Positions 1 through 49,634 are shown, counted from the stretch's first letter. The stretch is 64,000 nucleotides of DNA from Obrimoposthia wandeli (GCA_977020255.1 CDROCS010005932.1:1-64000); one strand, 5' to 3'. Made by a program: numbers and translations. The notes: a model not told the origin generated them from the sequence alone.

Positions 1-905
1 AATCGAGAAACGTAACGTACAACCTATGACCGATCACATAGAAGCAGCAAGAAATGCTAAGAGCATGGAGTAGAAAATGTGAAAAAAGATAATTAGTGAA
101 GCTAAAGAGACGTTGAATCAACCGCTAGACGAAGAGTGAAGCTCCAGAAGTTTTGACCAAACTAGCTAAACACCTAGTGCATGATTTGGAAGAAGTGAGC
201 AGAATTGGTTAAACATAGTCATGAGGTCTCTGAAGTCATAAAAGAAGTATCACTAAAGATTATTGAAAGGATATGGTCGTTAAGCGTACAGAGGTCAAAT
301 CAAAAGGAACGATGAAAATTTCACTTTAGATTAAATTCTATTGTGATTATGCATTTAAAAAACTTAACGTATACCAAAAAACAACAGAAAACTATTCGGA
401 AAACAGCATGAGAAACTTGAAAACAGATTTGAATGAATATGCTATTCCCAATATAAAGGAAGATCAATAGATGAAGACGTACCAGTCGAGTGCGTGATAT
501 CCAATAGGAAACGAATTAGAGGAAAAATTACGCCAATACTGTAGAACGTCAAGTTAGTAGATAATAAAGGATTAACTGAGATATTAAACTCTGCGTTAGA
601 AATGATAAAAACGCCTATAGAAATTTTAGACAGTTCAAGCGAAAGTGAAATAATAATGATGTAGCTGAAGTTTTGGGAAACGAAGATCCACCAGAACCGC
701 ACAGCTGAATTAAAAAGACGTGAACCAGAAAATGAGTTGACGACTCCGGGTGGTCGAAGCAACACCAGAACCAGATAACTCCAAACCGACAAGATGAAGT
801 CACGGATATAGCCACAACTGCTGAGACAAAACGAAAACGTAACCCAACTAGTAGAGAATAAATTTCATTTGATTTAGATTCAGGCATGCATATGGGAGAG
901 ATGCT

Positions 906-1112
906 ATGGAACAGATGATGACAAAGAGGATTGGTCATGTGGTACACCTAAGCCAAGAGGCAGTGCATGGCTGGGTAAACCGTATGATCCTAGGAGAACT
1001 GAGATTGTATTTAAAGAGGAATCTGGGAGACCTAGAAAGCGACAGTAGTATATCATTGAAATGTTCTAACTGCGTGACGATGAGACATCTGGCCATTGAC
1101 AGCTGCCATTAG
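906..1112 (+). pseudogene. gag: Probable Gag-type CCHC zinc-knuckle remnant
   Basis: KCSNCVTMRHLAIDSC approximates Cx2Cx4Hx4C. Surrounding A-rich coding-like sequence has many stops and frameshifts. Confidence 0.45.
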
Positions 1113-3476
1113 AGCAGTAGCACAGTGGAGCCAAACGAAGATATCTGAGAGCAATATGAATTCCTGGAAGTTCAAGTAAGATATCATGGGGAATTCCTCT
1201 AGGGCAGTTTAAAAATTGTTCAAACAAACAAAGATGAAACAGTTCATATACCAATTTGACTAAAGCAGTAGATCACAGTTCTGGTGAAGAGAATGACTTA
1301 TGAACCATCAATAGAATATGATTTAATATAAGTTTTAGCGAGATTATGTGGATACCAGACTACAAATAAAAAAGCTTAATCACAGCGATTACACATTCGC
1401 AAGTCAACTGGGACGGAACGAACGAGCCAACCTCAATGGAAGTCAAAACAAGGAATAAATGGCTGATGTATTCATCGAGAACGACATGTTGTTGACGAAT
1501 CGACGAAAACGGAGGTTGGGCTGAAATGGCGATCGCTACGCTAAAACCATTGTGGAAATGAATGAAGACGATGACGGTTCAATGTCATGAGAATCGCCAA
1601 AGAGAAAATAAACACACCGTCCGAAAGAAAGAAAACAACTGCAACCAAATATGTCCAACGATAATGATGATGATGCTAGTAATGTTTATGGGAATGCAAC
1701 AGGCACTGATTGAAGGCACCAAAGATGGGACAAAAGAGCCATCCATTCAGGCTAAAGTTTTATGTTTGGAAATCACACCAACCGCCACAAACCATGAGGT
1801 TTTTCCGAGAGACGTGCACGCATTTCGAACAGAACAATAGAAACAGACAAGAAGCACTACAAACCTGATGTAAAGTTGGGGGATATTAAACAGTCACGAG
1901 AGTAGGACAACGATGGCCCTTGATGGATCTTGTGACGGAGGAACAAAAACGCATGGAACCAAAGTAAATAGTAGAGTTAGTAATGACGTAACTTATCAGA
2001 CGAATTAAAAAACATGACCGCTAATTTTGATAAAAGACACAACGAAATGATGAAGTATCCGGAATGTGGAAATGACAGATCAGTAATGGCAATAGAAGAA
2101 GGATCAGATATTTATTAAAAAGAGAAAAACGCAAAAGGATGTGGAAATGACTGTTAGTACTAAGAACCATCCTGGAATAGTTTTATTCAGAGAATTAATA
2201 GCAATTAGCAGAAACCAAGCTAAAACCCAGGAGGTGGTAAGCTATTAATACACATATTTTAATAATAAATTGATTTTTATTATCATAAAGGACTGATGCA
2301 AATGGAACAGTTATATCGGATGACATCGAGAGAGATTGCCAGCCAAACAAAGAGATCAAGAATAAAGTTAGCATTAGCTATTACGAACTAGACATGGTAG
2401 CACCATTATTACCCTTAGATGAAGGTATTTATAAAACCATGGGAGAAGCATTACATACTTGCTAAGCGAAAGTGGAAGTACAGTTTAAACAACAAACCGA
2501 TGTAATGGAGTGAAATCGGCAGTAACGCATAATTTAAAAGAACTTTTGTTGAACCAATCACGAATGATACTTCCAAAAGACACTCCAACCAAATCAGCTG
2601 TCAATATAATGGGCACCTGAATATCAGATGACGAATGATCTATGGATAACCCTACCTGAATCGAAAGTCAAATTGAAACTCCAGATGATAAAATGACGAA
2701 TCTAAAGGAAAACAAATTCAGCAGAAATATGAAAATGCAGGTTTGTACTACGAAAAAGACTTAAAAGCGGCCTGGAAACGAAATAATGTTTCCAGTAAAG
2801 CGGCCAGAGTACCATGAGATGGTACATCGCATTGACACCAGAGCTGATATGCGAATTTCGATATGTTATTGTCGCCAAGTCATTTGTGGAAGCAGTACAT
2901 CAAACACTTAGAAAGATGGGGAAATTCTTTGTTTTGTGCACAGTTATTTCAGGTATCATAGGTATTTATGAATATAAATTAAATTGTGCAGTGTAATTGA
3001 GCCTGTGTTGTCTACGTATAGCTATAAGCAGGATAACCTGAATCACCTGCAAACTTATAATTGATGTTTCCCATTTTAGCGAAATATCTAATGCAATCAT
3101 CATCACGAGAACGAGCGCTGGTGAGCCCTCAAAGCGAGCAACATCAAACGAGAACCATGATAATGAGAACCAAGAAACTATCATACTACAACGACGATGA
3201 TAACGATAGCCCAGAGAATATTCAAAGAGAATCAGAAAACCAAGCAAAGATTCCTGCTTACCGGTATTGCTAAATAAGTGCTAAACCTATATCCAATGAA
3301 GGAACTAAAGGAAGAGAAGGAAAAAGTTCAAGAGAGGCATTTTAATGATAAGATGGCCTAAAGTGAATCAAGGTGAGATTCCAAGCAGAGAAAAAGACAA
3401 AAGATAATTCCAGCTTGAAGTCTAGGATATCCAATGAGAATCCAAACGCTCCATCACAAGTAGCAGTAACACATCG

Positions 3477-3680
3477 AACGGAGAGGAATATCTTGCCGAA
3501 GTTGATACTGATCTGTATCAGTACTGAGTAAAGAAATCTTATTATCAAAGAATTGTTAAGAGAAGTATGCCCTAGAAAAACAGACATTTGTTAACGTAAA
3601 TGGTACAGATGTAGTGTCATCAGAAGGAACACTGAAAATGTTCTGTTAAATATTTCATTTTGAAGAGCATTGCAGTTAAA
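3477..3680 (+). pseudogene. Upstream retropepsin-like (aspartic protease) domain remnant
   Basis: Restoring 1 nt after gtt gat act (3501-3509) gives NGEEYLAEVDT[G]SVSVLSKE. Downstream, FVNVNGTDVVSSEGTLKMF resembles the flap VSVNGDPVKVTGILPCTF of the second protease. Confidence 0.5.
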
Positions 3681-4386
3681 TGTCAGAATATTCACAGATT
3701 GTAGTCCAGTCGAATGATGGATGTATATTTGATGTTTGAAGCTGAATAATTATATTACCAAACCAACAAGAGTTTTAAAGAACGACAGTTCAGTGAGAGA
3801 TAAAATGTTGAGAGGACCTAGTAGTCGAAAAGGAAAATAATTATGTTCCGTATATGTAAAATCCGTACCAAGACAGGAAACAGGAAGCGCCAGTAAAGTC
3901 GATACTTCACTACAAAGAGAAACTACGGACCACAAGCTATGACGAGGGAGGAAAATAACATATGTGAATCTGTCGAAAAGATCCCTGAGAATCGGTAGTA
4001 AATAAACGAAGATCACTTGAACCGTACTATTCAAAAGAAATGTCACGTAAATGGCGAGAACAGGTTTACAAATGTTAAACACGACAAATAGTTATGGTTC
4101 TGAGGAAGTAGTACGATGCGTATGGTGCAGAGTAAGTTTAGAAAGTGGGAAAACAATGAAAACCCAATGAAACGTCATAAAGAGATGCACCAAATTGTCC
4201 ATTTCTCTGAAACTGAAAACTTCAAACGTACCAGAAATTCAAATGGGGAAAGCACCATCTGATTTCGACAACAGTGACGAGATTCCAGAAGGAGAATCAG
4301 CTCTAAAAGTAGGCAAAGTGATAACAAATAGCCGAATTGAAGATATATTCGAAGTAATGCGAGAAGTAAACGAATGTGACGAACAA

Positions 4387-4570
4387 TATCGAGAAGTAAC
4401 TTTCAAAGATCCTAGACTTAAAAAAATTGGCAAAAAAATAACTTTTTGCTATAAAAAAGGATGGTAAAGACGTCATTAAATGCCACAAGTGTAAAAAAGA
4501 ACGATTTATTGACAGATATACTCTTGAGTTATCTAAGAAAACTTTACATCATGAATTTTGCGAATTTTGT
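4387..4570 (+). pseudogene. BIR-like zinc-binding domain within the polyprotein (frameshifted)
   Basis: Reconstructed with copy B (~34047-34230): YREVTF...LKKLAKKxLFAIKKDGKDVIKCHKC-x18-H-x6-C. This matches the BIR pattern RxxTF...LAxxGF...DxVxCxxC...H-x6-C. Confidence 0.65.
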
Positions 4571-4865
4571 ACTTTTAAAAACAAAATAAAGCAAAAAGAA
4601 CAGAAAACCGAATGTATAATCGAATACCAAATCACACGGAAAGAGATTTTGGCTCAACAAGACACACCGGTAGTGTCATTCGTGAGAAGACTATATACAA
4701 AAAGAAGCAGAAAGAATCAGAGATTTGGTAGAATTAAAAATAAAAACTACGCGAAATGGATACGGATCAATTTTTTGAATTACTAAAAGATAAAGATGAC
4801 AGTACAATTGAAACAAAAGAGAAAGAGTACATAAACGAACTAGAATACGTACTAGAAGATCCAAC

Positions 4866-4990
4866 AGTGCAGTTTGCATGGTCAATAAAATAGAAGTTGC
4901 CTTTTTACTCATGCGGACATGTAAGAACATAAAGTCGGAGATGCGAAGGAAATGGTATCATGTCCGATTTGTAGAAGGATAATAGATCGA
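4866..4990 (+). pseudogene. IAP-type C3HC4 RING finger within the polyprotein
   Basis: Copy B reads xAVCMVNKVEVAFLPCGHVKTCRRCANEMVTCPICR (34521-34628). Copy A is the same motif with indels. Confidence 0.8.
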
Positions 4991-5099
4991 CAAGTGAGAA
5001 ATATTAGATTTCACTATCCAAACAAAGGAAGTGGACCGGGACAGAATTTAATAATTCAATAAATACAATATACCATATGGGAAATATAAATGGAGTTAA

Positions 5100-5420
5100 T
5101 ACAGCGACCAGCAGCTATCATCAGAGTAAATAATTTAAGAGTAAAAGCCTTAATTGATACAGAAAGGTGCTGTAGCTTCGATAGTAAGTGAAGATTGTTT
5201 GACAGAGGAACAGAAACGAACAATGACAGAACCAGATGAATTATTGGTATCAGTCAATGGAGACCCTGTAAAAGTGACGGGAATATTACCATGTACATTT
5301 ATAATTGGACGTAATACGATCACTATACCAGTTAGAATCATGAAAGTATGTCCTAAACCTACAATTTTAGGAATGGATATACTATCACAACTCAAAGGAA
5401 TAAGTATTGATTTACAAGAT
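5100..5420 (+). pseudogene. pol: Pol aspartic protease
   Basis: IRVNNLRVKALIDT + GAVASIVSE with a 4-nt insertion in the DTG codons, and later ILGMDIL. Copy B retains ALIDTG at 34804-34812. Confidence 0.85.
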
Positions 5421-5656
5421 CCAAGATTGAAGGATAGCACATCAAACAGACAAATAAACCAAATTGATGTAATTATAGAAAATCCTATAAAAATCGGTAA
5501 AAGATCACAATTTCTCATTCAAGGTCACACATTATCAGAAGATAAAGGACCAGTTGTGTTCGAACCATCACGAAATTTCATAGATAAATACGGAATTATC
5601 AGTTGTGAGTACAGTATGGGCGTCTGATTGAAAACCACAAAATACCAGTTAGACTG

Positions 5657-7165
5657 ATGAATACAACCAACAATGACATCCTGTTATACAGAGGAATGAG
5701 GTTGGGAAAGATAGCACAGATGAAGAATCCCACTGTGTGTGCTATGAAACTCGATAAAGACACGAATGATTACGAAGAAATAGTAATCCAATCAGAAAGA
5801 CTGACAACCAGAGAAAAGAAACAATTACTCGATTTAATACATAGATTTCCAAAGGTAATTGCCAAAAATCCGTATGACATAGGAGAAACACCTGTCATAA
5901 AACACACAATACCGCTGACAGAAGACAAAGTAGTCAGAAGAAGACCATATCGAGTACCATTACAGTTACAAGACGAAGTCAAAAGCCAGATCGAAGATAT
6001 GTTCAAAACAGGAGTAATTAGACCGAGTTTTTCACCATTCTCAGCACCTGTGGTGTTGGTAAAAAAGAAGGATGGAAAAATGAGATTCTGTATAGATTTC
6101 AGAGAACTGAACAAGATCACAAGAAAAGATGTTTATCCATTACCTAGAATCGAAGAGATGCTCGATAAATTGGGTAATTCAGATTATTTTACATTGATTT
6201 GCAGAGTGGATACTGGCAAATCGAGATAGAGGAAGAGGATAAACACAAACAGCCTTTTCCTGCGGAGATGGATTGTACGAATGCGAAAAAATGCCATTCG
6301 ACTGACAGGAGCCCCAGCAACATTTCAGCGTTGCATGAATTTTGTACTGCATCGTGTGAAACACGATGGTTTATATCGATGACATAATAATATTTTCGAA
6401 GACGTTCGAAGAACATTTAAAAAATCTTGAAGTTGTATTTAAAAGACTGGAAAACGCTAAATTAAAGTTAAACCTACAAAATGCGAATGGGCTAAAGAGC
6501 GAGTAACATTTTTAGGACATATAGTATCGAAAGAAGGTATTCGACCTGATCCAGCAAAGATCGAGAAAGTAAAAGCGCATTTAGCGCCAAAGACTGTTAA
6601 AGAAATACAGAGTTTTTTAGGTCTTGCGAACTATTATAGACGATTTGTTGAACATTTTTCAGATATAGCAACACCATTGAGAAAGTTGACGAGGAAAGAT
6701 GAGAAGTTCATATGAGGAAATGAAGCACAACAAGCGTTCGAACCTCTAAAAGAAAGACTGATAAAAGCACCAATATTAGCGTTTCCAGATATAAACCGAC
6801 AATTCATACTAATGACAGATGGGCAAGTAACTATGCTGTAGGAGCAGTATTGGGGACAAGAGTATGGCGAAGGAAGAGAACACGTCATCGTGTATGCGAG
6901 TAGAGGATTAAACAGAGCCGAAAGAGGATACTATGTTATTGAAAAGGAATGTCTAGCCATAGTATACTCATGTAGACAGTACAGACACTACTTGCTAGGA
7001 AAAAAAGTATTCCTGTATACAGATCACAAACCACTACAGTTCTTGTATAAACATAGAGACGAGATGAGTAGATTAAACAGATGGTTTCTGAAATTGGCCG
7101 AATTTGATCTAGAAATCCGTTATAAAACCGGAAAGTCGAATGACAACGCAGATTGTTTGTCGTGA
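5657..7165 (+). pseudogene. pol: Reverse transcriptase and RNase H (frameshifted, with stops)
   Basis: SPFSAPVVLVKKKDGKMRFCIDFRELN, YPLPRI, SGYWQI, YIDD, TFLGHIVS, YASRGL, EKECLAIV and TDHKPL: typical Ty3/Gypsy RT-RH. Confidence 0.95.
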
Positions 7166-7399
7166 TTGACAAATGTAGACGAGAAAGGAAACATAATTCT
7201 AGAAGAAGAACAAGATGAAACCTACGACCAAAAAGGAGAAGCAAATCTACTATCGATTTTATAAAGACGGGTAAAATAGACAAAGAAATCATCAAGGAAC
7301 AGAAAGAAGATGAAGAACTGAGTCTAATCACAGAACTGTTAGTGAAAGGAGATCTAAACGATGAAATGACGAAAAAATACTCGATAAAAAGAAGGAATC

Positions 7400-8600
7400 T
7401 TGTATATTGTCAACAATATAGGAAAGATAGTAGTAGTAATTCCGAAGTCATTGAAAACAGCAGTGATGATCCAGTACCACGATGGAAGACTGGGAGGACA
7501 TATGTCAGGGACGAAAGACAATAGCCAGAATCAAAGAGAAGTACCATTGGGATGGTGGAAGATGACATAAAACAATGGTGTAAACAATGTAAAGTATGTT
7601 TAACCAGAAAAGACACCGCCGGAACTCGTACTAAAGTTCCACTGAAACCGATGCCAGTTCCTTTGGCACCAATGGAATTCACAGCGATGGATATATTGGG
7701 ACCATTGAGAGAATCGAGTAAAGGAAACAAGTACGTCATAGTATTTACGGACTACATGACGAGATGGGTAGAAACATATCCCATGCAAAACCCCAAGGCT
7801 GAAACAATAGCGCAGATCTTAGTGGAAGAGATAAGATTTTGATACGGAGTGCCTAGAAAGTTATTAATGGATCAAGGCAAGAACTTCACTGAAGAAGTAA
7901 TAAAAGCAGTATCGAAGATATTTGGAATCATGAAGTTACAAACGTCACCATATCACCCACAAACCTATGGTCTAGTATAGAGGATTAATAAAACTTTATG
8001 TATGATGGTACAATCTTATTGCTCCGATAAGCAAGAAGATTGGGATAAATATTTACCTTCATGTTTATATGCTTACAGGAATTCAGTTCGAGAGGCGACG
8101 GTCACACACCATTCTATCTGATGTATCTCAGACAGAACAATATGTCAATAGATCTGGAGTGGACCGAACCAACATCTCAGTATCTAGAAACTGAACAATA
8201 CATTGTCGTTAGGAAAGAAAGATTACAAGATGCTTGGACTAAAGCAGGATTGAAACTGAAATTCAATCAAGAAGGTTACAAGGAACAATATGACAAAAAG
8301 GCAAAACCACATGAATTTAGAGTCGGAGATTAAGTGATGATATTTTACCCAGTCATCGAACCAGGTCTATCGTTTAAACTTCATAGACCATACAAAGGGC
8401 CATACAAGGTGATACAGACAACCTCAACGAACTTGAAAGTAATCAACGAGGAGAACCGGAACAAGGAACCAATGATTGTACATGCAAATCGATGTAAACT
8501 GGTACTGAATAAAGATAACGCGTCACGATATGAGTTAAGATCACAGAAACTGAAGCCGAATACCAATACCATTAAACTTACACGAATGGTAAGTGATTGA
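7400..8600 (+). pseudogene. pol: Integrase with GPY/F C-terminus (decayed)
   Basis: HDGRLGGH...CKQCKVC zinc motif, AMDILGP, LLMDQGKNF, SPYHPQTYG; catalytic Glu codon mutated to TAG; RPYKGPYKV and VHANRCK. Confidence 0.95.
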
Positions 8601-8615
8601 AACTACATAAATACG

Positions 8616-9734
8616 ATGACAAGTGGTAGCGAGGAAAAAGCAGCGAGAATTGGCATGCTCAGAACGAAGCACCAAGAGGAAAAAGAAGTAATCCGACACA
8701 TCGCACCACAAGAGATATTGGAAGAAGACGAAGAGATCATAGTCGTTTTCGAAAGAACACAACCAACAGACGTGGCGAAAGAAGTCATTGTGAAAGATGC
8801 ACTAACAAATGAATTTCTATGCGAACTTAGAGTGTCATACTACGATGGAAATACACTAGTCGCAGAACTGCATCAAAACTCCAATGTGTTTACAACTGAG
8901 AAAGTTATAATCGAAATCACATTAACACCAAACATAGTTGCATGGCAGAACTATGACAGTACTGAATCAGGACTAGCCAGTCAGGAAGAAAAAGAACCGC
9001 CCGGTGGTCACATACTTCATGGTACACCAAAAAGACTCAAACAAGAATACCACGATGTAATAATGGTGTTACGTAATTCACATGGGAGAAGAGACATAAT
9101 GAGAGTTCATTTAATCGACGTTGACACTGAAAAGATAATCTGTCAGATGGACACCAAATACTTTGACGGAAAGACCATTGTATGTAGTATACCGGAATCT
9201 CACCAATTAAACACAGATCAAACGGAAGTATCTGTAAGATTGAGCGTAATAGAAGGATTTCATTCGCCAACCCAACCGGAAGTAACAAACAATAAAATCA
9301 TTAAAGCAACGGCAGAGTTACGCATTGACAGCGGATACCGGAAGTGGGAAGCTAAAAATAAACCACAAAGAATCAATATGATCCGAGAACAAGTGACAAC
9401 CTCAATCCAACCAAAATATCATGCTGAAATAGTATCATCCGCGCCAAGTGTGATTACATCGATAAACGACGAAATTATAATTTTACTAAAAAATCGATGG
9501 CCGTCATCAACCGAGATACGAGTCAATTTAATTAATTATGCGAAAACACCGATATCTAAGCTGAATGTCACCTATTTTGATGCATTGTCCATCATGGGTA
9601 AATTGGAAACAATTGTCATGTGCTATGGAGCACAATTCCAAGTTGAGATACTTAAGGATAGTGTAATACCGTATCTGATTCACAGATACGCAGGACCAGT
9701 CAATCCAATTATTCTAACCCCTTCATTAAATTAA
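8616..9734 (+). CDS. Polyprotein segment with three ~80-aa repeats, IPT/TIG-like fold inferred
   Basis: Three alignable units (~8691-8925, ~9009-9250, ~9423-9660). In copy B the segment is in-frame with integrase (ORF 38896-40332). Confidence 0.55.
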   Translation: MTSGSEEKAARIGMLRTKHQEEKEVIRHIAPQEILEEDEEIIVVFERTQPTDVAKEVIVKDALTNEFLCELRVSYYDGNTLVAELHQNSNVFTTEKVIIEITLTPNIVAWQNYDSTESGLASQEEKEPPGGHILHGTPKRLKQEYHDVIMVLRNSHGRRDIMRVHLIDVDTEKIICQMDTKYFDGKTIVCSIPESHQLNTDQTEVSVRLSVIEGFHSPTQPEVTNNKIIKATAELRIDSGYRKWEAKNKPQRINMIREQVTTSIQPKYHAEIVSSAPSVITSINDEIIILLKNRWPSSTEIRVNLINYAKTPISKLNVTYFDALSIMGKLETIVMCYGAQFQVEILKDSVIPYLIHRYAGPVNPIILTPSLN

Positions 9735-10123
9735 TTCAGACAGACATACCAGAATACCCTTCGAGCGAGTCTAGTCAAGACAGCGAACCTGAAAGTAGCG
9801 ATCCAGAGTCAACAGAATCCGAAGATAACATAATAGAGCGATTCGGAAGAACCATGGAGGTTGAATTCGCTAAAGAGAGTAGAAAAAGACGAAACATAGA
9901 ATTCGTGAAACAAAATATACAAGAAAGACGAATTAAATCCGCAGAAGAGACCGAGTCGGAAGAGGAACCAACAAAAAAACAGACATCAGAGACAAAGATG
10001 AATATCTCTCCAGCGATACGAATGCTGAGAGGAAAGAAACTGGCGAAATTATCCATCATCAACGAACAACTAGAGAAGAGATTAGAAAGACTAAAACTTG
10101 AAGAGTCAGAATTAATGCCACCA

Positions 10124-10530
10124 ATGAGTGAGATCATTCCAGGTAAGTTATACCTCGGAAATGTGGAAGATGCAACAGACGAAAAGAAACTGTTGGAACA
10201 AGGGATAACATACGTGATCAATGTTACAATGAATCACAAATCGCAATATCAGACAATCAGAGCTATGACATTAAGAGTAAAAGACTCAATGGAGGCTAAT
10301 CTTCTCGAATGGTTCGTAGAAACAAACGAGATACTTCACAGAGAACTCCAAAACCAAGGAAAAGTGTGGTACATTGTCAGAAAGGAATCTCCCGATCAGC
10401 AACCCTAGTATTAGCGTATCTAATAAAGACTAGACGAATGCAGGTACTAGAAGCGCTGAAATACCTAAAGGAAAGACGAAGTATCGCGAACCCAAATCTT
10501 AACTTTTTGGGACAATTGTCAAATTACCAA
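10124..10530 (+). pseudogene. Dual-specificity protein phosphatase domain (1-nt deletion before the active site)
   Basis: SEIIPGKLYLGN...GITYVINVT...VHCQKGISRSATLVLAYLI...ALKYLKERRSIANPNLNFLGQL. HCx2GxSRS loop at 10372-10398. Copy B has KVLVHCLKGISRS in one frame (41061-41096). Confidence 0.9.
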
Positions 10531-10641
10531 CTCATGTTGCAAGAACAGAGACGGATGGACGACATCCCTGAGGATCCAAAGGAAAAGAATTTCCTCCAAG
10601 CACTATCGTTTACCGGTTTATTCTTAGCCGGAGTCGACAAA

Positions 10642-11049
10642 ATTACTCAGATAATGCCGAAAGTATTTCTATGTCATCCAGGAGATATAGATACTGCTGG
10701 ATTAAAGTTCCACAGTATCAACCCAGTAATTAACATTGTTGAAGTCGGAAATGAGATAATCAGCCTGCGTCAAAATACTGAAGATGACACAACTCGATAC
10801 ATACATGCTTCCAATCGGGAGATAAACGATGCACAACAACATCTGATGAAACTGACTCAAACCATCCAAGCCGAAGTCACAGAAGGAAACGGCGTTCTGA
10901 TATATCAGAAAAAAGGTACAATGTTAGCGCCTACCATAGGTGTATCCTTGTTGGTAGAGTACCATGGTCATACACCAGAAGAAGCGATGGTTTATATCAA
11001 ACAGAATAGACCAGATACGGAATTCAACCATTACTTGTTCGAGAAATAG
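10642..11049 (+). CDS. Second DUSP-fold domain lacking the catalytic Cys/Arg (pseudophosphatase)
   Basis: ITQIMPKVFL...GNGVLIYQKKGTMLAPTIGVSLLVEYHGHTPEEAMVYIKQNRP aligns to DUSP, with HCxxGxSRS replaced by YQKKGTMLA. Same motif in copy B. Confidence 0.65.
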   Translation: MTQIMPKVFLCHPGDIDTAGLKFHSINPVINIVEVGNEIISLRQNTEDDTTRYIHASNREINDAQQHLMKLTQTIQAEVTEGNGVLIYQKKGTMLAPTIGVSLLVEYHGHTPEEAMVYIKQNRPDTEFNHYLFEK

Positions 11050-11105
11050 AGAAATACTCCGAAAAGAGGAAGCAACAACGAGAAACAAATGAAGCTACAA
11101 CAACA

Positions 11106-13856
11106 GTGCCCAGCTATCAATACCAAAGATTGCTAGCACTAGGCTTGTTAAGTTGTCTAATGCCGATAACGGGAGCACAAGAGATAGGCTCCAACAACGG
11201 AAATAGTTCATGGTTCAAAGAAATCAACAACTACATCATGCAGTACAATACACCGACACTGATGATGCTATTAGTGTTGATAGGACTAATCGATGTTTGG
11301 CTTATCCGAAAATGTTTCCAATCTATGAGAACCGATAGAAAATGTTTCCAGTTTGTGAAAATGAAGAGACCAAATGAACCAACGAACCAAGTACTTGTGT
11401 ATCTAGACGAAAGGATCGAAGAAAACATAGTGAATGAAGCGATATTTTATCCACAAAACAGAATACTGAATCAATTCCGAATAGATTACGAAGCTGACCG
11501 ACAGCGCACACTTGACCGAATATCAACAACATTCGCCGGATGCAGGCGAAGAAAACGAATCGTAAAGGAAATACAAAAAGATGTGGATACAAAAGGTACG
11601 ACGTACATAATCGACGGCGATGTCATCAAAACACGTGAGTATGGAAGTAAGAGAGTGATAATTGAAACGATTGAAGGACATAAAACATGCTTGTCCGCCA
11701 AAATTGGATTCGGGAAATTGATGATACAAGGTAAACAGGTACAGTTGATTATCGGGAAAACTGGAATTGAAGAAATGTCAAAGCAACGACAGACAAACCA
11801 GACAAAATGACCTAACCAGAAACAGATGTTGCTCAAACGAATAATAATCAAAACCCTTTGCAAAAGGACAATCACGGCCCTGTGCACTGTTACACAAGGA
11901 TCGATCTACGGAGTAGTAATTGGATTGGTACTACAAGCCATTCCAACCAGTAAAGCTGAATTGATGACGCTACCTGGATATAATTTACATCTGAGAAATC
12001 TAGACAACACCCTAGAAATAATCAAGACGTCTTATAGTAAAGCCGTGATGATCATGTGTGTAAAAGGATGTCCAGGACGAATATGTGTAATCCCAGCAAC
12101 CGAAATGATAACACTAAATAATCATTATGGAATGAGTGTTGTCACATGTGAAGGATACACATTTGGACAAACTAAAATAGTACTTCTCAGTGACATGTCC
12201 AACCAAAGTACACATAAATTTAAAATATTAACCATCAAGAGTAAAGGGATACCAGCAATACGTTATGGTATTCTAGAATTGGTTAATCCAATACTAGCAT
12301 TGACTATCGGAGTCATAATAATAATATTGCTCATTTTGTTTTGTTGTACAAAGATAGAGTCGAGATCGAAAAAGAAACGTCATGATCTCGCAAGACAAGC
12401 AGGTCAAATGAATTTACAAAAATTCAACACAATGATACCAAGACCAGCATTCCTAAATGAACCAGCACCAAAGTATCAGCCAACGATATACGAACATATC
12501 GAGGAAAGACAATACTACATGAGTAACTTGAGTTATCCTAGAGAAGTTCTTGAGATTAGAAAGCAGACGATCATAGGAATCATGCTGATCATGCAAATCA
12601 CCACGACCGAGGCTGGTTATGAGATCATGATCAGTAAATGGAGACAAGATACGATACGGGCGTTATCCATAAAAATACCTCTAATAAAAACAAATTACGT
12701 AATAGGCATTCACCTACAAACATCAGCAACCGAAAATGTCGATCAGAAATTGTATGTCATTCGCCAGATCAAAATAAAGATTGACCAACATAAACTTTAT
12801 TACCGACTGATATTATTCTACCATGAAAAGGTATTATACCTACGAATAACAATATCAAAAAGGAAACGGATTATTCAAATTATCCGAACAAAGTCATTAA
12901 TATTACCTAACGACGAGCGCATCTGGAAAGTTGTCGACAGGATTATGATCACAGGTAGACGACGTAAAACCGTATGGAATTCCGTTAGAATATTCTTCAG
13001 ATTGTTAGAAACTGACCAGGTAACAGTGGCGTGTCCCAATCCAGATGGTGGAATCCGATTCGAAATTCAAAACCAAATGTTAGTACCACATTTTGATGCA
13101 GAATGTCTATGTAACCGAATTCCCAGCAATGCTAAAGAGACCACTACCATAATCATGGTAATAACAGATGAAATATTCTACATAACTCTAAGATACCAGA
13201 CACGTCGATTTCGTGGACTCGGTATAAGTATTAAACCCAGGAAAATCATTCCCGGAAAACCAATCAAAGTCATAAAAAAGGAAAAGGTGAAAGGAAGTAA
13301 ACGCCATTCCAAAAAACCAATCATAGTCAAAAAGAAGGCAAAGGTAAACGGAAGTAAACGCCATTTCGAGAAGCCAAAAGTAGTCATAACAAAGGCAGAA
13401 GTGAAAGGAAAAGAGCTCGATCTCAGAAATCAAAGTACAATTATTAAGAGTACAAGAGTGAAGGGAACGATTCCACTAGATCCCAAATATCATTTCCAAT
13501 CTCAATTAATAATACCTGTTAGACCGAAAACAAAATATCCAAATCCGCGAGTTATTAGAAAATCGGACATAATACATGGAAACCGATCAACACCAATGGA
13601 AACGCCATTCAAACCGACAAACAACAAAATGAAGTATGATTACCAATCATCAGACAGCGGAATAACAGCGGTCAATGCTCTAATTGGAATGGCAGTAGTG
13701 TCAACAGCAGTAGTTCTATTGACAGTCGTGTGCGTGAAAGGCAGTCAGGTATGCCCAAGAATACGACGGAAATGCGAAGGACTGCGATGCTGTAACACAC
13801 CCACAATGGAGGAAGTGGAATTGCGACCCTTACCTCCGCCTCCCATCAAGACATGA
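11106..13856 (+). CDS. C-terminal membrane-protein region of the polyprotein (one in-frame TGA at 11808)
   Basis: ORFs 11106-11810 and 11826-13856 share a frame, and the TGA is CGA in copy B. Three signal-peptide-like and three TM-like hydrophobic segments. Confidence 0.7.
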
Positions 13857-13981
13857 TAAGTCAGAGGAGGTTGTAGATAAATTAGTGTGTAAAAATATGT
13901 AGAAATATCTAGAAGCGATTGTACAAATAAGTAGAAATATGTAAAACCCATGTAGAAATTAATTGTCATCATGTATTTAGA

Positions 13982-14281
13982 ATGTCCGAAGAATGCCCAA
14001 TATGTTTGGAAGATTTAACCGAACGAAGAACAAGACCCGATACCTGCAACCACTTACACCACGAGGAATGTTTGTCAAAATGGATCAGAACCTATGGAGA
14101 GACTCCCTATCCGACATACCCTCGTTGCCCTGTATGCAGAAGACAATTCACAAAGTTAATCAAAATAGAACCCAACCAAGAGGATGTAGATGTACAGGTG
14201 ATATTATGTTGGAAGAATTTGAGAGAGTGTTGGTGTTATTACTGTTTATCAGAACGACAAAATTCGACCACTTTTGTGTAA
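13982..14281 (+). CDS. Small RING-H2 protein 1 (99 aa)
   Basis: CPIC...CNHLHHEEC..W...CPVC plus C-terminal CWKNLRECWCYYC. Confidence 0.85.
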   Translation: MSEECPICLEDLTERRTRPDTCNHLHHEECLSKWIRTYGETPYPTYPRCPVCRRQFTKLIKIEPNQEDVDVQVILCWKNLRECWCYYCLSERQNSTTFV

Positions 14282-14341
14282 ACATCGCACAACCACCAGC
14301 CCTCAATCGAGCCCAATTTCAACATCAACCCTCTCACAGTA

Positions 14342-14647
14342 ATGTCTGGAGAATGTTCAATCTGCTACGAGAACATCGTGGACCTCTATACCAAACCCAA
14401 CAACTGTGACCACCAGTTCCATGTCGAATACCTCGAGACGTGGATCCCAATCGCAAACAACAACAATCCCCTCGACTACCCAAACTGCCCGATGTGCAGA
14501 GCAACCTTCTCGGTGCACTATGTCTACAACCGGGACAGCCTCCAAGCAGTGGTACCCATTGTACACTGCTGGAAAAACATATGCGACTGCTGGTGTTCGT
14601 TCTGCGTAGAGGAGCGACGCACAGGCCAGCCCAACAGCCAGCAGTAA
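14342..14647 (+). CDS. Small RING-H2 protein 2 (101 aa)
   Basis: CSIC...CDHQFHVEY(C in copy B)..W...CPMC plus HCWKNICDCWCSFC. Confidence 0.85.
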   Translation: MSGECSICYENIVDLYTKPNNCDHQFHVEYLETWIPIANNNNPLDYPNCPMCRATFSVHYVYNRDSLQAVVPIVHCWKNICDCWCSFCVEERRTGQPNSQQ

Positions 14648-14997
14648 CCGAAGGTAACTTTTGACTTAAAACGTGACATCATGAACTACCCTGTGTATCG
14701 CACACCGCGATAAAATAACTACCATAATTGTAATCATAATTGTATAATCTTGCGAAACTGTAAAATGACCATTACCATTTTTATGTATGTTGTTTATTTG
14801 AAATTGTAATTATTAGACTGAAACTCCAAAAGACAATTTTTTATGCTTAGTATGAATGTGAAAAACATGCCTAAAATCAAGACAAAATTCGGTAGGATTA
14901 AAATACTAAGGCTTATAATATTGAAATTAAAATATTAAATTCATAAATTAATATTAAACCCAATTGAACCCCAAATTAAAGAGTAATTATTGCGCAG

Positions 14998-15528
14998 ATG
15001 CTTTGCTCAATTAGCCTCGAGAAAATCTGGGCAGAGTCGGCATCCCCTGCCGGGTGCCGGCACAAATTCCACGAATCCTGCCTCTATTTGTGGGCCAAGG
15101 CTCGACCCTCCGGCCACATCACATGCCCGATGTGCCGGGCACCCTTTTCCGAGTGGACGCTCCAGTGCCGTGGACGACCCAAGGGCACCCACTCATCCAC
15201 CAGTTGCATTGGTGGCGAGCACTGTCAGTGCTCCGTGTGCCTCGCGCGCCGTCGCAACGCACAATTGGGCATCCGCGAACGATGGCGGTCTAGCCGCGAT
15301 AACCGCTCATGGCAACAGGCCAGACGCTTATGGATGGAGAATTATGAGCTGTACGGGCAGGATTTCGATTTATTTATCGAGAGCTCACACCTGACCCCGG
15401 ACCAGCAGGTGGACCTACTCCTCGGGGACATTCCGTCCTTCCCAGACCTACCCCTGGAGCAGGTCATGCTCTATTTGGACAGTCAGAACCAGCCAACAGT
15501 AACAATTGACCTCACCAGCAACAACTGA
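14998..15528 (+). CDS. RING-H2 protein 3 (176 aa)
   Basis: CSIS (second Cys changed)...CRHKFHESC..W...CPMC, then CIGGEHCQCSVC and an acidic tail. Confidence 0.75.
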   Translation: MLCSISLEKIWAESASPAGCRHKFHESCLYLWAKARPSGHITCPMCRAPFSEWTLQCRGRPKGTHSSTSCIGGEHCQCSVCLARRRNAQLGIRERWRSSRDNRSWQQARRLWMENYELYGQDFDLFIESSHLTPDQQVDLLLGDIPSFPDLPLEQVMLYLDSQNQPTVTIDLTSNN

Positions 15529-16408
15529 TAAAACATTACAATTCATCCTTTCCGCTCCTTTCCTTCTCTAAAACACTTGTGTATAATATATGTAGTGAAT
15601 ATTTGTGACCTTGTCCGATTTATTCACTATCTTGGCAGTAGTACCGAATTTTGTTGAATATTAGGCATGTTGATGAGTTTTGAATGATTGAAATTAGTGG
15701 GGATGATTTTAAAAACAGAAGCTCAGAAGCTAGTAAATTAAAATCGATACGTTCCGGGGACGTAACTTTTTTAGAACCCCCGAGATATGTTAGGTTTAGG
15801 AATTGATAAAAATAGAATAATTAATCGAATTTATAGTGAAATAAGAATCCTTGAAAGCAAGGTTATAAATTAAATAAAATTGAATATTAGAATTAAATTA
15901 TTGAGATTGGGAGGTAAATTGAATATTAAGGACCACGAAGGTCGTGTGTAGTGCGCTGTATGTATGGGAGGTTAGATTATTATTAAGGGCCCCAAAAAAC
16001 AAGAATCAATTAAGAAAACGAAAATCTAATTAAGAAGATTATTGCGAAAAGTTTATTAAGAAAAAGGACGAAGAAGAAAATCAAATTAGTCGTACATTAG
16101 AAACCCATTAGCAGTCTAGCAGCTACGACAACAGAAACCCATTAGCAGTCTGGGAGCCAGCAGTAGCACTTAGCTAAATTGATTTCTTCTGTAGAAAGTG
16201 AGCAGCAGAAAAGCAAACATCCGCAACCAATTCCATTAAGCCGTCAGTGGGAGCCAGCAGCTAATAGTCTGTCGAGTCGACTGATCCATTAGGACAAGCA
16301 CAGGACGTCGAGAAAGAGACCAGCCGTAGTTTTCCAATTCCAGCGATTTCCGTGCGAGGTAAACACATTAAAGTAAAGTGTTTTCAATTATTCCATTAGG
16401 AAACCAAA

Positions 16409-16415
16409 TATAAAA
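16409..16415 (+). promoter_or_regulatory. TATA box in the LTR
   Basis: TATAAAA about 620 bp into the LTR. Confidence 0.45.
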
Positions 16416-17142
16416 GCAGACGCACTCCGATCGCAGAGGCAGTAGCTAACGAAAAAATACTCGTCGAGAAAATCCGAGCAGGAATAAAATTCGAGAATCA
16501 GAGTTACAGTAGTTAGAGTCCAAGAAAGAATTTAGAGGAAAGGTCGCAAATTGTTGTATCGGACAGCAGACGAACACAGCAGCAGCACAAGATCTCGCAG
16601 ATCCTTCTAGCAATCACCAAGCTCGAACGCGGAACTAGGACTCAAAGGACTCTCGAACACCGACGGATAGACCAAAGGCGATAGATCTCCAAACGAGACC
16701 GGACGGACGAGATCTTCGGAGTAAGCCGAAGTCTGCCGATATTGGAGGAAGGTCAATAACGCGATTTCGTGGAAATTATTTTACATCCTTTGCAGTTCGA
16801 CACGGAAAGAAGAACAGCGAGCAAGAAGCCGAAACGGAGCTATTCGGAACCAGGAAGTTGTCTCCGTGGAAACAGAGGTATCGGACTAATCCAGCACCAC
16901 GCCAAACTCCACAAAAGGTCCGTAACAGAACAAGACAATTCTAGCAACCGAATAAACCGCCTCGTACAAAACAATCCTAGCGACTGTATCAATCCCACAA
17001 AAGGACCGATCTCAGAGCGAGCATTACGGAAGACAATCGGAAGGTCTGCCAGAGCAAGCCTACGCATAGAATTATTCGGAGAGAGGTAAGAAGCGAACCG
17101 AATAATTGTGAAGTGAATTAAAGTAAAAGAAAAAACGTTACT

Positions 17143-18470
17143 GTGAATTTTGAATCTGAACTAGTAAAGTAATTGCCGTGAATTTTGAAGTATTGAAATA
17201 ATTTCTGTGAATTTTGAATCTGAACTAGTAAAGTAATTGCCGTGAATTTTGAAGTATTGAAATAATTTCTGTGAATTTTGAATCTGAACTAGTAAAGTAA
17301 TTGACGTGAATTTTGAAGTATTGAAATAATTTCTGTGAATTTTGAATCTGAACTAGTAAAGTAATTGCCGTGAATTTTGAAGTATTGAAATAATTTCTGT
17401 GAATTTTGAATCTGAACTAGTAAAGTAATTGCCGTGAATTTTGAAGTATTGAAATAATTTCTGTGAATTTTGAATCTGAACTAGTAAAGTAATTGACGTG
17501 AATTTTGAAGTATTGAAATAATTTCTGTGAATTTTGAATCTGAACTAGTAAAGTAATTGCCGTGAATTTTGAAGTATTGAAATAATTTCTGTGAATTTTG
17601 AATCTGAACTAGTAAAGTAATTGACGTGAATTTTGAAGTATTGAAATAATTTCTGTGAATTTTGAATCTGAACTAGTAAAGTAATTGCCGTGAATTTTGA
17701 AGTATTGAAATAATTTCTGTGAATTTTGAATCTGAACTAGTAAAATAATTGCCGTGAATTTTGAAGTATTGAAATAATTTCTGTGAATTTTGAATCTGAA
17801 CTAGTAAAGTAATTGACGTGAATTTTGAAGTATTGAAATAATTTCTGTGAATTTTGAATCTGAACTAGTAAAGTAATTGCCGTGAATTTTGAAGTATTGA
17901 AATAATTTCTGTGAATTTTGAATCTGAACTAGTAAAATAATTGCCGTGAATTTTGAAGTATTGAAATAATTTCTGTGAATTTTGAATCTGAACTAGTAAA
18001 GTAATTGCCGTGAATTTTGAAGTATTGAAATAATTTCTGTGAATTTTGAATCTGAACTAGTAAAGTAATTGCCGTGAATTTTGAAGTATTGAAATAATTT
18101 CTGTGAATTTTGAATCTGAACTAGTAAAGTAATTGCCGTGAATTTTGAAGTATTGAAATAATTTCTGTGAATTTTGAATCTGAACTAGTAAAGTAATTGC
18201 CGTGAATTTTGAAGTATTGAAATAATTTCTGTGAATTTTGAATCTGAACTAGTAAAGTAATTGCCGTGAATTTTGAAGTATTGAAATAATTTCTGTGAAT
18301 TTTGAATCTGAACTAGTAAAGTAATTGCCGTGAATTTTGAAGTATTGAAATAATTTCTGTGAATTTTGAATCTGAACTAGTAAAGTAATTGCCGTGAATT
18401 TTGAAGTATTGAAATAATTTCTGTGAATTTTAAATCTGAACTAGTAAAGTAATTTCCGTGAATTTTAAAG
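17143..18470 (+). repeat. 64-bp tandem array, about 20.7 near-identical copies
   Basis: Unit gtgaattttgaatctgaactagtaaagtaattgcc + gtgaattttgaagtattgaaataatttct; unit starts at 17143, 17207 ... 18423. Confidence 0.98.
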
Positions 18471-19129
18471 TCCGCAATTGAAATCGGATTGTTCTGCATT
18501 TTACCTAAATTAGAGCAACAACTCTACTAAACTTTATCCCGTGTTAGAGCAACAGCTCGGTAAACTACTGGTATTTTAGATCAACGCTCTGTAAACTTGT
18601 CGCAATTTTAGAGTAAAGACTCTAGCGCCAACCAACCCTAAACCTAAAATCGATACGTGGTTCATCCCTACTTGTGTAGAGACTTACGGAAGTATTAGGA
18701 ATTTTACTGTAACTTTTTAGAAATACGTACGTAAACGTATTGCTTTGTGTTAGTCTAGTGTGTTAATAAATAAACGATTTCCTACATTAGAAAGCATTGT
18801 TCTAAACCCTTCAGATTAAGAGACATCGGAAAACAAACACCTTCAGATAAGAATTGAGACAGGCAACTATAACATTAAGTAGGCCACGACCATCCTTAAG
18901 TCCTGCTTCTATAAGAACTCACGTTGGGGCCCTCCACACTAAAGAGGATCTATAAGTTTCATATAGAAACCCCAACACTATCTTAGACGATGATGGCTTT
19001 TTGAGAAGTAATACAAGAATTATCCATGCTGAATTTTTCAGTTATGATGTACAATTCTCGATTATTGTGTGCGAGAAGAGCAGTTTAGCAAGGTTGATTA
19101 TAAAAGAAATCAACAAGAAGTTGAAGCAC

Positions 19130-29365: not shown

Positions 29366-30100
<735 letters not shown>

Positions 30101-32089: not shown

Positions 32090-33357
32090 ACGACCCAGCG
32101 AGCGATCGGCAATAATTCTGTAGTCATATTTTTATTCACACATTCTCACATACATTCACACTGCATAGCCAACATTATCAATGTACATAGCTTTTATATC
32201 CAATTCGCCAACCCGGTCCGACCCCCAGTAACTAACCCTCTCAATATTTGCTACTCTTTATTTATCTACCTAACTTTTTCTCTCTCTCCCTCTCTCTCTC
32301 AATTGTTCAATTTGTTATTGAATAATGTGCATTTAGTTAGTACACACCTGTTACCATTTTATACAAAATATGGTCTTTTTCTGGGTTGTTGCATCGTGTC
32401 GGTTTTCCTGTGTTTCTTACTGCATCATATTTGTTGGTTTTCTTTCTTTCTATTTGCAGAATCACAATTTTCAAGTTTTGTATTTTACCATAATCATATA
32501 TTGGTTTTAATAGATGTATTTAATAAATTTTACTTTGTTGTTTTTAAATTTATTTGTAGTGCTCCGGTGACCCATACCTTTTAAGTTTATGACTAGAACT
32601 TTATTAAAATACAGTGAGCAATTTTTGCTCGTGAATATTTTAACGAAGTTTCGATATTTATGCGTAACTGAGAATTTATGAACCAATTACTTTTAGCTTG
32701 TCTGATAGTAAAACTTGGCAATTTAGAACAAATAGTGTAAATCTAATAAAAATATATTCAAAATGTCTTTATGAAAGTTTTAAAGCTTTAAGCATCATTT
32801 AATATTGCTTATTACTTGAATAATACGTTCTACAATCTTTTGGCATACAAGTCTTCTAGAATCAATAAATGCTTTTTCTGGGTATATCTTTAAAATTCAA
32901 GAACTTTTTCTGTTTAACAAGTGTTCTCAGTTGCAAACTTGACTACAAAACATACTAAAAATTTTATTTTATACGTTATTGTAGTGTTACAGGTAGTATT
33001 AGGTTCAGAAATGGACAATTAAATAAAAGTAACTATATTTATGGTCCTGACCAAGGACATTTACAAGACCATTAGTTAATTATTTTTTAAATGTATGATA
33101 AAAGAAGCAAGAATAATTAACTCTAACTTACCTAAAAGGGAGTTAAGTAAACTCAAATCACCTCTAAAACAATTATTAATAGTCTCCCAAATAAGGTTAA
33201 AAACAAACTTTCATTTAAAATCCAATCGTAAAACATAAATTTAACGTCTATCCGAAAAGGTACCTTCGTATAAATACCGATAAAATCGTCTACCTGTAAC
33301 GATCTTAGCTTTCTAATAATTGAAAAAGCCTGCATAAAGGATTTAATGTTTTATTTG

Positions 33358-35041
33358 TGACTTCCTCGCGAAATATTCGAATAGCGCAGACGTTCAAGGA
33401 TGGAACGATAGAGGAAAATGTGTCCGCGTACAGGCGCATTTTACCGGACTAGCACTCGAAGTGTATAAACATTTTACAGAAGCAGAACGTGCAAATTGGG
33501 AAACATTAGAAAATGCTTTTATAGGAAAATTGGTATTGGGAGATTTAGCAAAAGAGAATAAACGAATATTGAGAGAACAGGACTGAAACATGACGAGAGC
33601 GTGAATGGATATGCGTATGTTTTGAGAACCTAGGCAGCGCAAGCGCATCCAAGAAAAATATTGAGAAATCAGGCAGATGAACCTGTAGCTGAAAATGTAC
33701 AATTAGCGGAAGATAGTTTTGTTAGATATATTCAGAGGACTGACAAAAGACATTAAAGTATTATAGGCAGTATCGGATTCAAATGATTTTGACAACGCCG
33801 TTGGGAAAAAAAATTGGAGAAACAATGATAACCCAACGAAACGTCATTAACTGGAAGCACCAACGTGTCCATTCACCCTAAAATTAAACTGCAAATGAAC
33901 CAGAAATGCAAACAGGAAAAGCACCTAATTTTGACAGTGACAAGATTTCAGAAGAAGGAACAGCCCAAATAAAAAAGCGTTGTAATAAAAAACAGTCGAG
34001 GATATATTCGAAGTAATGCGAGAAATAAACGAATGCAACGAACAGTATCGAGAAGTAACTTTTGAGGATCAACGACTTAAAAAATTGGCAAAAAAAGAGA
34101 CTTTTTGCTATAAAGAAGTATGGTAAAGACGTAATTAAATGCCACAATTGCAAAAAGGAACGACTTATTGATAGATATACTGTTGAGCTACCTAAGAAAC
34201 TTTACATGACGAATTTTGTAATTTTTGTAATTTAAAAAACAAAAAGAACCAAAAGAACCGAAAACAGAATGTATAGTCGAATACCAAATCACACAAAAAG
34301 AGATTTTGGATCAACAAGACACACCAGTAGTGTCATTCGCGAGAATGTTTTATCCAAAAGAATAAGACAGGATCAGAGAATTGGTAGAATTAAAAATAAA
34401 AACTACGCGAGATGGATACGGATCAATTTTTGAATTATTACGAGATAAAATGACAGTACAATTAAACAAGAACAAAAAGAGTACATAAATGAACTAGAAT
34501 ACATGCTGGGAGATCCAGAATATGCAGTTTGCATGGTCAACAAAGTAGAAGTTGCCTTTTTACCATGTGGACACGTGAAAACATGTCGGAGGTGTGCTAA
34601 CGAAATGGTAACATGTCCGATTTGTAGAATGATAATAGATTGACAAATGAGGAATATCAGATTTCACTATCCAAAAAAAATAAATTAGACCGACGAAATG
34701 TAACAATTCGATAGATACAGTATACCATATGGAAAATATAAATACAGCACAGCGACCCGCAGCTATCATTAGAGTCAATAATTTAAAAATAAAAGCCTTA
34801 ATTGACACAGGCACAGTAGCATCGATAGTGAGTTAATATTGTTTGACAGAAGAACAGAAACAAACAATGTCAGAACCAGATGAATTCTTGGTATCGGTCT
34901 ACAGAGACCCTATAAAAGTGACGGGAGTATTACCATGTACATTTGTAATATGACGTAATACGTAACTGGATACATTAGGACTATTGAGAAAATCAAGTAA
35001 ATGTAATAAGTATGTAATAGTATTTACGGACTACATGACGA
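33358..35041 (+). mobile_element. Giant Gypsy copy B, 5' fragment (Gag capsid, BIR, RING, protease, integrase scrap)
   Basis: FLAKY...QGWND...HFTGLALEVY...WETLENAF...ESVNGYAYVL (Gag capsid). 33806-34960 is homologous to 4140-5290, and 34961-35041 to 7690-7762. Confidence 0.85.
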
Positions 35042-35410
35042 TTTTTTTTTAAAATTAGTAATTAAAAAATTTTGTAAATAAATTAAATCAAATTTAAATT
35101 AGATTGAAAATTAGAGATTAGAAGTTAAAAAATAGTCTACTATTAGAATAGTTTGCAGGTTTAAAATTAATTTGTTTTATGATGCCACGTAGGTAGTTGT
35201 TTACAACAAAAAAAAAGAAGAAAAGGTATGGGATCTCGATTTAGTGTTATGCCTTGAAATGGTCGTGATTTAATTATTATTCTTTCTAGAGTTGCGTTGT
35301 ATTCCTTCTAATTGTGCTGTGTAAAGTTTTGTGAAAGAAATTGAAAATATAAAAGAAGGTTTACTTTAGTGATTTGATTTATTTTTAGAGATGACGCCAA
35401 CACGCGAACA

Positions 35411-35451
35411 TGGTAGCAGAGCGTGGTTGGGTTATGGGCCCCCCAGCCACG
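35411..35451 (+). promoter_or_regulatory. Primer-binding site complementary to tRNA-iMet, with a second complementary box
   Basis: TGGTAGCAGAGCGTGGTT right after the LTR, then GGGTTATGGGCCC...AGCCACG. Confidence 0.8.
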
Positions 35452-49594: not shown

Positions 49595-49634
49595 GTATGA
49601 TTAAGTTTATTGTTTCATTGTTACAATATGGCAG

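Follow-up and report, generated by a model that had tools for sequence, protein, structure and literature searches.

The stretch analysed here, 64,000 nucleotides (nt) of Obrimoposthia wandeli DNA from the start of a contig (GCA_977020255.1 CDROCS010005932.1:1-64000; hereafter the window), opens inside a Gypsy long terminal repeat (LTR) element of 23-25 kb in all, whose 3' part occupies positions 1-18977 (copy A). Comparison of its genome copies revealed one giant open reading frame (ORF) of about 5,380 codons (~16,145 bases, first Met to stop, in the coordinates of one copy), which runs through Gag, a ubiquitin-like domain, a BCL2-like domain (weak), a chuvirus-type Env, a protease, BIR, RING, a protease, reverse transcriptase (RT), RNase H, integrase, three beta repeats, a dual-specificity phosphatase (DUSP), a pseudo-DUSP and a membrane tail, and is followed by three RING-H2 ORFs. 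An earlier note, made from the sequence of the window, had placed the element at 1-18874; its identification as a Gypsy LTR element was correct, while it ends at 18977 and has its Gag core and zinc knuckle outside the window, about 2.2 kb before base 1. Missing from the note were the second protease, the chuvirus-type Env and the two domains resembling ubiquitin and BCL2.

A single reading frame from Gag to the membrane tail

Copy A carries two stops and three one-base losses within this frame, which were compared at 101 of the 110 genome loci (73 contigs) and in copy B, a second member of the element located in the window; nine loci were omitted, three because they represent the window and six because they contain flank only. 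Of 50 aligned copies, 2 had a stop at 8598, and 3 of 29 had one at 11808, both positions being sense codons in copy B, and the stop at 13854-13856 was a stop in all 30 copies, B included. The span 9640-9760 was one base longer (modulo 3) than in copy A in 46 of 49 copies, as were the spans 10290-10420 (45/50) and 11000-11060 (29/29). The breaks of copy A are therefore rare elsewhere, and no stop or frameshift inside the ORF, of the kind that the earlier note had proposed to look for, was common to most copies.

Continuity was judged on natural ORFs only. Between Gag and the end of the frame, 17 domain junctions were tested, and every one was bridged by single natural ORFs, in proportions ranging from 2/6 to 30/38 copies, whereas the control across the terminal stop was bridged in 0 of 28. 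At each position tested between 2230 and 13720, a 240-nt segment was free of stops in 57-100% of the copies (mean 82%; 19-49 copies), falling to 0/29 at 13800-13950; the 5' part, mapped on another copy, was likewise stop-free (mean 79%), with fewer than five copies aligned at three Gag positions. By comparison, 296 of 1,525 segments of 240 nt were open on the reverse strand. These results confirm the earlier proposals of a single frame ending at 13856 and of its extension upstream through BIR-RING and Gag to more than 4,600 codons, and the one-ORF architecture is, in our judgement, nearly certain.

About 120 stop-free codons lacking Met were seen to precede the first Met in several copies (e.g. 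L027 3351-3732), possibly reflecting a non-AUG start.

Domains of the polyprotein and downstream ORFs

The features of the window are listed in Table 1. One zf-CCHC stretch was found in each of four natural Gag fragments. For the ubiquitin-like domain, a profile of three relatives matched ISG15 (E 9e-5), ubiquitin and SUMO, with a Pfam ubiquitin match at E 0.004. The BCL2-like region matched Pfam Bcl-2 at E 0.035-0.05 in two of three relatives (E up to 0.1 overall), kept its GGW motif in all three, and occupies the same position as in the Burro elements discussed below. Env was recognised in a natural fragment of another copy (PF24664, E 4e-76), with 15 cysteines and two glycosylation sequons kept, and its junctions with the BCL2-like region and with the protease were bridged in 10/29 and 18/35 copies, respectively. 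A reading of the protease after Env as a dead copy was dropped, the motif being intact in 29 of 32 copies. No Pfam match was obtained for the dUTPase-like spacer.

Table 1. Features of the window, with supporting matches and counts among copies.
Feature	Position	Strand	Evidence and remarks
Giant ORF, 3' five-sixths	1..13856	+	Gag core and zinc knuckle upstream of window
Ubiquitin-like domain	400..620	+	Approximate, noisy in copy A; tblastn piece 449-493
BCL2-like domain, GGW motif at end	1300..1570	+	Weak
Env, Monjiviricetes/chuvirus-type fusion glycoprotein	1600..3250	+	Signal-like segment before, membrane anchor after; pieces 1772-3076 in copy A
First aspartic protease	3445..3740	+	Pfam gag-asp_proteas E 1e-6; DTGS in 29/32 copies
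BIR	4000..4205	+	PF00653 E 2e-12; zinc ligands intact in 32/39 copies
IAP-type RING (C3HC4)	4860..4996	+	PF13920 E 1e-12
Second (canonical) aspartic protease	5102..5405	+	DTGA in 36/41 copies
dUTPase-like spacer (weak)	5410..5700	+	5/7 PDB rows dUTPases, best E 0.16
RT and RNase H	5900..7170	+	Domain search
Integrase (H2C2, core, C-terminal domain)	7388..8560	+	Domain search
Three ~85-aa beta-rich repeats	8700..9680	+	Pairwise E 8e-6 and 5e-6
DUSP, MKP5/DUSP10-like	10149..10532	+	PF00782 E 1e-41
Pseudo-DUSP lacking catalytic Cys and Arg	10617..11055	+	Second DSPc stretch
Membrane tail	11080..13856	+	Alternating signal-like and membrane segments, Lys-rich 57-nt repeat, terminal anchor
Small RING-H2 ORF 1	13982..14281	+	PF13639 E 2e-10; ATG 30/30, stop 28/28
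Small RING-H2 ORF 2	14342..14647	+	Domain match; ATG 27/28, stop 24/26
Small RING-H2 ORF 3	14998..15528	+	Domain match; ATG 22/23
3' LTR	15788..18977	+	TG...CA ends; 64-bp array of 20.8 units at 17141-18471
Target-site duplication, right 4-bp copy	18978..18981	+	Equals left flank of C577
Copy B	33352..45127	+	Internally deleted member of second subfamily, 77-83% identical to A; split by nested LTR element

The best match of the DUSP among solved structures was DUSP10 (E 4e-25), and its HCxxGxxRS motif was intact in 42 of 50 copies. The earlier note had referred to viral VH1-type phosphatases; the domain is closer to animal MKP5/DUSP10, and no viral VH1 was present among the 59 solved-structure matches at E<=1e-10. 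The animal MAP-kinase phosphatases (MKPs) MKP5/DUSP10, DUSP4 and DUSP1 and the IAPs NAIP and DIAP1 were the best solved-structure matches of DUSP and BIR, respectively, but unlike those proteins the domains occur here as intron-less catalytic or single domains within a retroelement polyprotein, and no rhodanese docking domain was found with the DUSP. The inactive loop of the pseudo-DUSP was identical in 21 of 24 copies. A search with the DUSP among proteins of 586-2,000 amino acids (aa) gave 12 matches, mostly animal, one of which has an RT domain.

The beta repeats scored 0.89-0.90 for TIG in the Atlas comparison; a TIG/IPT-like nature is only a lead. They had no match among 1.84 billion representatives, no Foldseek match at E<=0.001 and no PDB profile match, and their structure model was poor (pLDDT 35). 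Hydropathy showed five hydrophobic peaks in the membrane tail. Beyond the terminal stop, the stop separating the RING ORFs was present in 28 of 28 copies. Another frame, overlapping RING ORFs 1 and 2 (window 13981-14666), was open in 19 of 26 copies and may reflect only high GC.

Purifying selection and age of the copies

Pooled over up to 20-25 copies, pN/pS was lowest in RT (0.10), integrase (0.10), pseudo-DUSP (0.12), DUSP (0.14) and Env (0.15), with RNase H within 0.10-0.15; it reached 0.18 in the ubiquitin-like and 0.19 in the BCL2-like domain (Gag within 0.18-0.19), 0.25 in the beta repeats and in BIR-RING and 0.30-0.41 in the membrane tail (linker within 0.25-0.41). RING-H2 ORFs 1, 2 and 3 gave 0.33, 0.34 and 0.35. 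Between A-type copies and copy B, dN/dS was 0.13-0.36 along the ORF. Every domain is under purifying selection and the cargo is clearly not neutral; the BIR, RING, DUSP, pseudo-DUSP, repeats and membrane region described in the earlier note are real and share in this constraint. The two LTR pairs compared differed by 7 substitutions in 1,432 bases and 25 in 1,914 (~0.5-1.3%), with an RT pN of ~0.013 in line, indicating that the insertions are young.

Extent, ends and abundance of the element

Two copies with both ends measured 24.9 kb and 22.8 kb, the second lacking a nested LTR, and both were flanked by a 4-bp target-site duplication (2/2). The LTRs are 2-3 kb long with TG...CA termini, a primer-binding site beginning TGG, presumably matching elongator tRNA-Met, lies about 8 bases past the 5' LTR in all seven 5' junctions, and the domain order protease-RT-RNase H-integrase is that of Ty3/Gypsy (Metaviridae). 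No purine-rich tract was visible before the 3' LTR (window 15760-15787) in the two copies inspected. In the 1.35 Gb genome searched, related copies were detected on at least 73 contigs, with matches 91-98% identical over 5-7 kb; the copy count is a lower bound, as no more than ~40 of 8,000-21,000 candidates were scored per search. Pieces of the family were also present in 27 of 30 bins of one marine metagenome, mostly 90-99% alike, a single study that only hints at a marine host; no RNA run was listed among the sequencing runs with the family. Among copies, C-to-T changes were 2.0x higher at CpG, a weak hint of DNA methylation.

The tandem array of the LTR (window 17141-18471; L015 4500-5022; L014 1328-1669) was unequal between the ends of one insertion (20.8 vs 8.2 units of 64 bp) and varied among copies, another having a 57-bp unit in 6 copies. 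The Gag gene of a further copy was invaded by a solo LTR of a related subfamily (L012 5663-7858).

Copy B, assembly noise and other features of the window

According to the earlier note, every break of copy A after the integrase core was repaired in copy B, whose own breaks fell elsewhere. Copy B is indeed free of all five copy-A breaks tested (two stops and three one-base losses), but it is not clean near the first loss: its own frame-shifting gaps number about 11, at ~9623 and ~9675 close to that loss and about nine more up to 13000. It also lacks Env, RT and RNase H. The proof of a single frame rests on the many other copies and not on B. The LTR element nested within B (window 35040-38315) has an integrase core and a primer site different from that of the giant element; its LTRs, of ~375 bases, are 94% identical. 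It is presumably BEL/Pao-like, judging by its motifs.

C577 shares the right flank of the window for more than 6 kb as well as the rare breaks of copy A, indicating either that one insertion was assembled twice or that it was recently duplicated. The window and C577 differed by 0-2 substitutions per kb at 5-10 kb; beside the contig start, at 0-4 kb, each kb had 57-75 substitutions as well as 72-132 gap bases. Much of the damage in 1-8000, which grows towards the contig start, is probably assembly error.

At 23220-25572, and in the same place in C577, lies a piggyBac-like DNA transposon; its transposase ORF of 613 aa is unbroken, and its inverted repeats are 26 nt long and perfect. A YY1-like zinc-finger exon (29366-30103) and MAT2B exons (49388-50841) were recognised as host genes and show the host to be an animal. 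Further fragments, at 19904-20089 and 53746-53937, match DUF5641 and an IS1595/Merlin-type transposase.

Relatives sharing the backbone without the cargo

The Env query retrieved four proteins of 1,582-4,029 aa (P0142-P0145), three of them with Env in frame with protease, RT, RNase H and integrase; one cluster of these relatives had 20 members of ~4,028 aa. A metagenome scan added three loci (L111-L113), two of which have uninterrupted ORFs (3,426 and 2,693 aa). Some relatives are partial, and the polymerase-containing ones have unbroken natural ORFs of 2,693-4,029 aa, providing independent proof that the single-polyprotein design exists in nature. Their identity to the family was 38-41% (P0142-P0145) and 26-40% (L111-L113) in Env, and 52-62% in RT-RNase H. 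They share Gag, a ubiquitin-like stretch, mostly several protease domains (three protease motifs in P0142-P0145) and signal-plus-anchor tails, and the BCL2-like stretch was also seen in L111 and L112; BIR, RING and DSPc had no match in any of these Env-in-frame relatives. In L111, three protease domains precede RT with a signal-plus-anchor unit between proteases (ORF residues ~1200-1950), and an RNase T-type exonuclease ORF lies downstream (10617-12107).

In a quick RT-RNase H tree of 37 rows, thinned at 70% identity from 123 and including neither Burro nor a true outgroup, the family joined four relatives at SH-aLRT 97 and a fifth at 88. BIR, DSPc and the Env family were absent from the best 120 of 807 long proteins matched by RT, which were mostly concatenated gene models at 35-48% identity. 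No relative was found among viral contigs with the Env or RT queries.

Comparison with Burro and other known systems

Burro1-4/GYPSM1 of Schmidtea mediterranea, with a Burro-like element in Dugesia tigrina, are described in the text of PMC6431247 as having an ORF1 (4,873 and 5,140 aa) that encodes one polyprotein with Gag, a Ubi/SUMO-like domain, BCL2, an in-frame Env related to mononegavirus fusion proteins, BIR, a RING zinc-finger motif, a dUTPase-like domain, MATH and ankyrin repeats. The available text of PMC8532177, PMC11410931 and PMC13238120 added nothing on domains. The family of the window resembles Burro in its giant single ORF, a Gag with CCHC, the succession of a Ubi/SUMO-like domain, a weakly matched BCL2-like region and Env before the protease, BIR with RING, and its high copy number. 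Between protease and RT, where Burro has a dUTPase-like domain, the family has the weak dUTPase-like spacer (best E 0.16). A Gypsy polyprotein with anti-apoptotic cargo is thus already known from Burro; the earlier note could not tell a Burro from a new family, and as a novelty the cargo is not supported, Burro ORF1 already combining BCL2, BIR and Env (PMC6431247).

The differences are several. MATH/TRAF, which Burro has in ORF1 or an upstream ORF, was unmatched in the natural fragments covering the ORF, with only ~450-600 bases between primer site and open frame, and ankyrin repeats were unmatched in the family. There is one CCHC knuckle instead of two or three, the element measures 23-25 kb instead of more than 30 kb, and the ORF (~5,380 codons) is longer than either published Burro ORF1. 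Since MATH, ankyrin, knuckle number and length are at variance, in a comparison made by description and not by sequence, the family is considered Burro-like and not a member of Burro. The text of PMC6431247, in which the word phosphatase does not occur, says nothing of a DUSP or pseudo-DUSP in Burro, nor of beta repeats, a membrane tail, a second protease or a trio of RING-H2 ORFs. Our literature search found no retrotransposon with a dual-specificity or MAP-kinase phosphatase, although the Burro figures, supplements or Repbase may list one, and no giant Env/BIR/BCL2 Gypsy element other than Burro. Apparently new features are the phosphatase module, the second protease, the membrane tail and the three RING-H2 ORFs, together with the length of the giant ORF and the wider clade.

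Anakin elements are likewise LTR retrotransposons with a captured chuvirus glycoprotein as Env (PMC7642597), but they belong to BEL/Pao, and the abstract of that work mentions neither a giant polyprotein nor apoptosis cargo.

Proposed mechanism and alternative explanations

The domain content is best explained by a Burro-like, Env-bearing Gypsy (Metaviridae-type) element, with a probability of about 0.65 when the following mechanism is included. A single LTR-driven RNA would be translated into a polyprotein threaded several times through the membrane of the endoplasmic reticulum: an internal signal would place Env in the lumen, the Env anchor would bring the chain back to the cytosol, the tail would supply further signal-plus-anchor units, and the parts would be freed by signal peptidase and the two element proteases. 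From what is generally known of IAPs, BCL2 proteins and MKPs, the BIR-RING pair, acting as an IAP-type E3, would together with the BCL2-like domain prevent cell death through caspases and mitochondria, and the MKP5-like DUSP would dephosphorylate JNK/p38-type stress kinases, with the pseudo-DUSP perhaps a docking partner. The three RING-H2 proteins would degrade host restriction factors, and Env would permit cell-to-cell spread. Retention of the cargo for host-cell survival is probable, somewhat more so than the scheme as a whole; the odds that JNK/p38 kinases are the DUSP target are even, and a role of Env in spread is an equally balanced proposal.

Several observations weigh against this interpretation. 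The longest unbroken frame at any locus was 1,670 aa, the median of the longest per locus being 899 (n = 101; loci <=10 kb), and every copy examined carries breaks, so that only past activity is supported, young as the insertions are. One frame means that Gag, Pol and Env are made 1:1, an unusual ratio. The copies are related, and their pairwise pN/pS values are consequently not independent. The BCL2-like domain is sub-threshold: its best natural PDB match (Bcl-xL, E 0.035) ranked below four designed helical proteins, neither a single-sequence PDB search nor a single-sequence model (pLDDT 39) supported it, and the Atlas comparison of the region gave other families. The signal segment before Env fell below the hydropathy cut-off in the element of the window, although it was above it in relatives.

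The splitting of copy A and of every other copy examined into many ORFs would fit the ordinary Gypsy arrangement of several ORFs linked by read-through or programmed frameshifting, but no break within the ORF is common to most copies and each junction is bridged by natural ORFs, making this highly improbable. The same low credence is given to the cargo being neutral host DNA from one copy, or an assembly chimera: the first 4 kb of the window are noisy, yet dozens of contigs, 91-98% identical, have this order, and so does a second subfamily ~80% identical, with purifying selection, and contigs from two sequencing studies cover it.

The alternatives that concern function are less remote. Were the retrotransposon purely intracellular, the tail and Env would serve membrane anchoring or assembly, as suggested by the position of Env in frame between Gag and Pol, at 1:1 with Gag, and by the viral contigs searched, which held no relative; this is rather unlikely, given that the Env of the relatives covers nearly all of the 653-position fusion-protein profile and that Env keeps its cysteines and sequons, 38-41% identity in distant relatives and a pN/pS of 0.15. 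Less likely still, although compatible with the Burro-like mechanism preferred here, is a host-element mutualism in which the cargo is kept mainly for protecting stem cells or regenerating tissue. The BIR-RING of Burro1, an element called planarian-specific, is reported second-hand to guard stem cells from apoptosis (PMC13465017), and the BIR-RING pair is intact in most copies here. Against this, the many copies, scattered and each of them broken, show comparable selection on cargo and on RT/integrase, the outcome of selection during transposition, and no fixed host-like copy was found among the 101 loci.

Significance for Burro-type elements

If the Burro-like reading is placed in a wider frame, the host would be a marine animal beyond the freshwater and land planarians, and Burro would be one branch of a wider enveloped Gypsy lineage, in which a single ORF encodes Gag, a chuvirus-type Env, several proteases, Pol and membrane proteins and would have lengthened from ~2,700 to 5,400 aa as modules of host death and signalling were taken up. 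We put this forward tentatively, as a scenario somewhat short of even odds. If true, this would be the first retroelement shown with a MAP-kinase phosphatase. Burro is the standing example of a retrotransposon equipped against apoptosis, and to that toolkit the family of the window adds a second layer of control: the stress-kinase phosphatase, its conserved pseudo-copy and the trio of small E3 ligases, each of them under selection. As the shorter relatives have the backbone without that cargo, the order of captures is open to study. The finding also raises the questions of whether retroelements counter JNK/p38 signalling like large DNA viruses, and whether Burro-type enveloped elements are widespread in animals.

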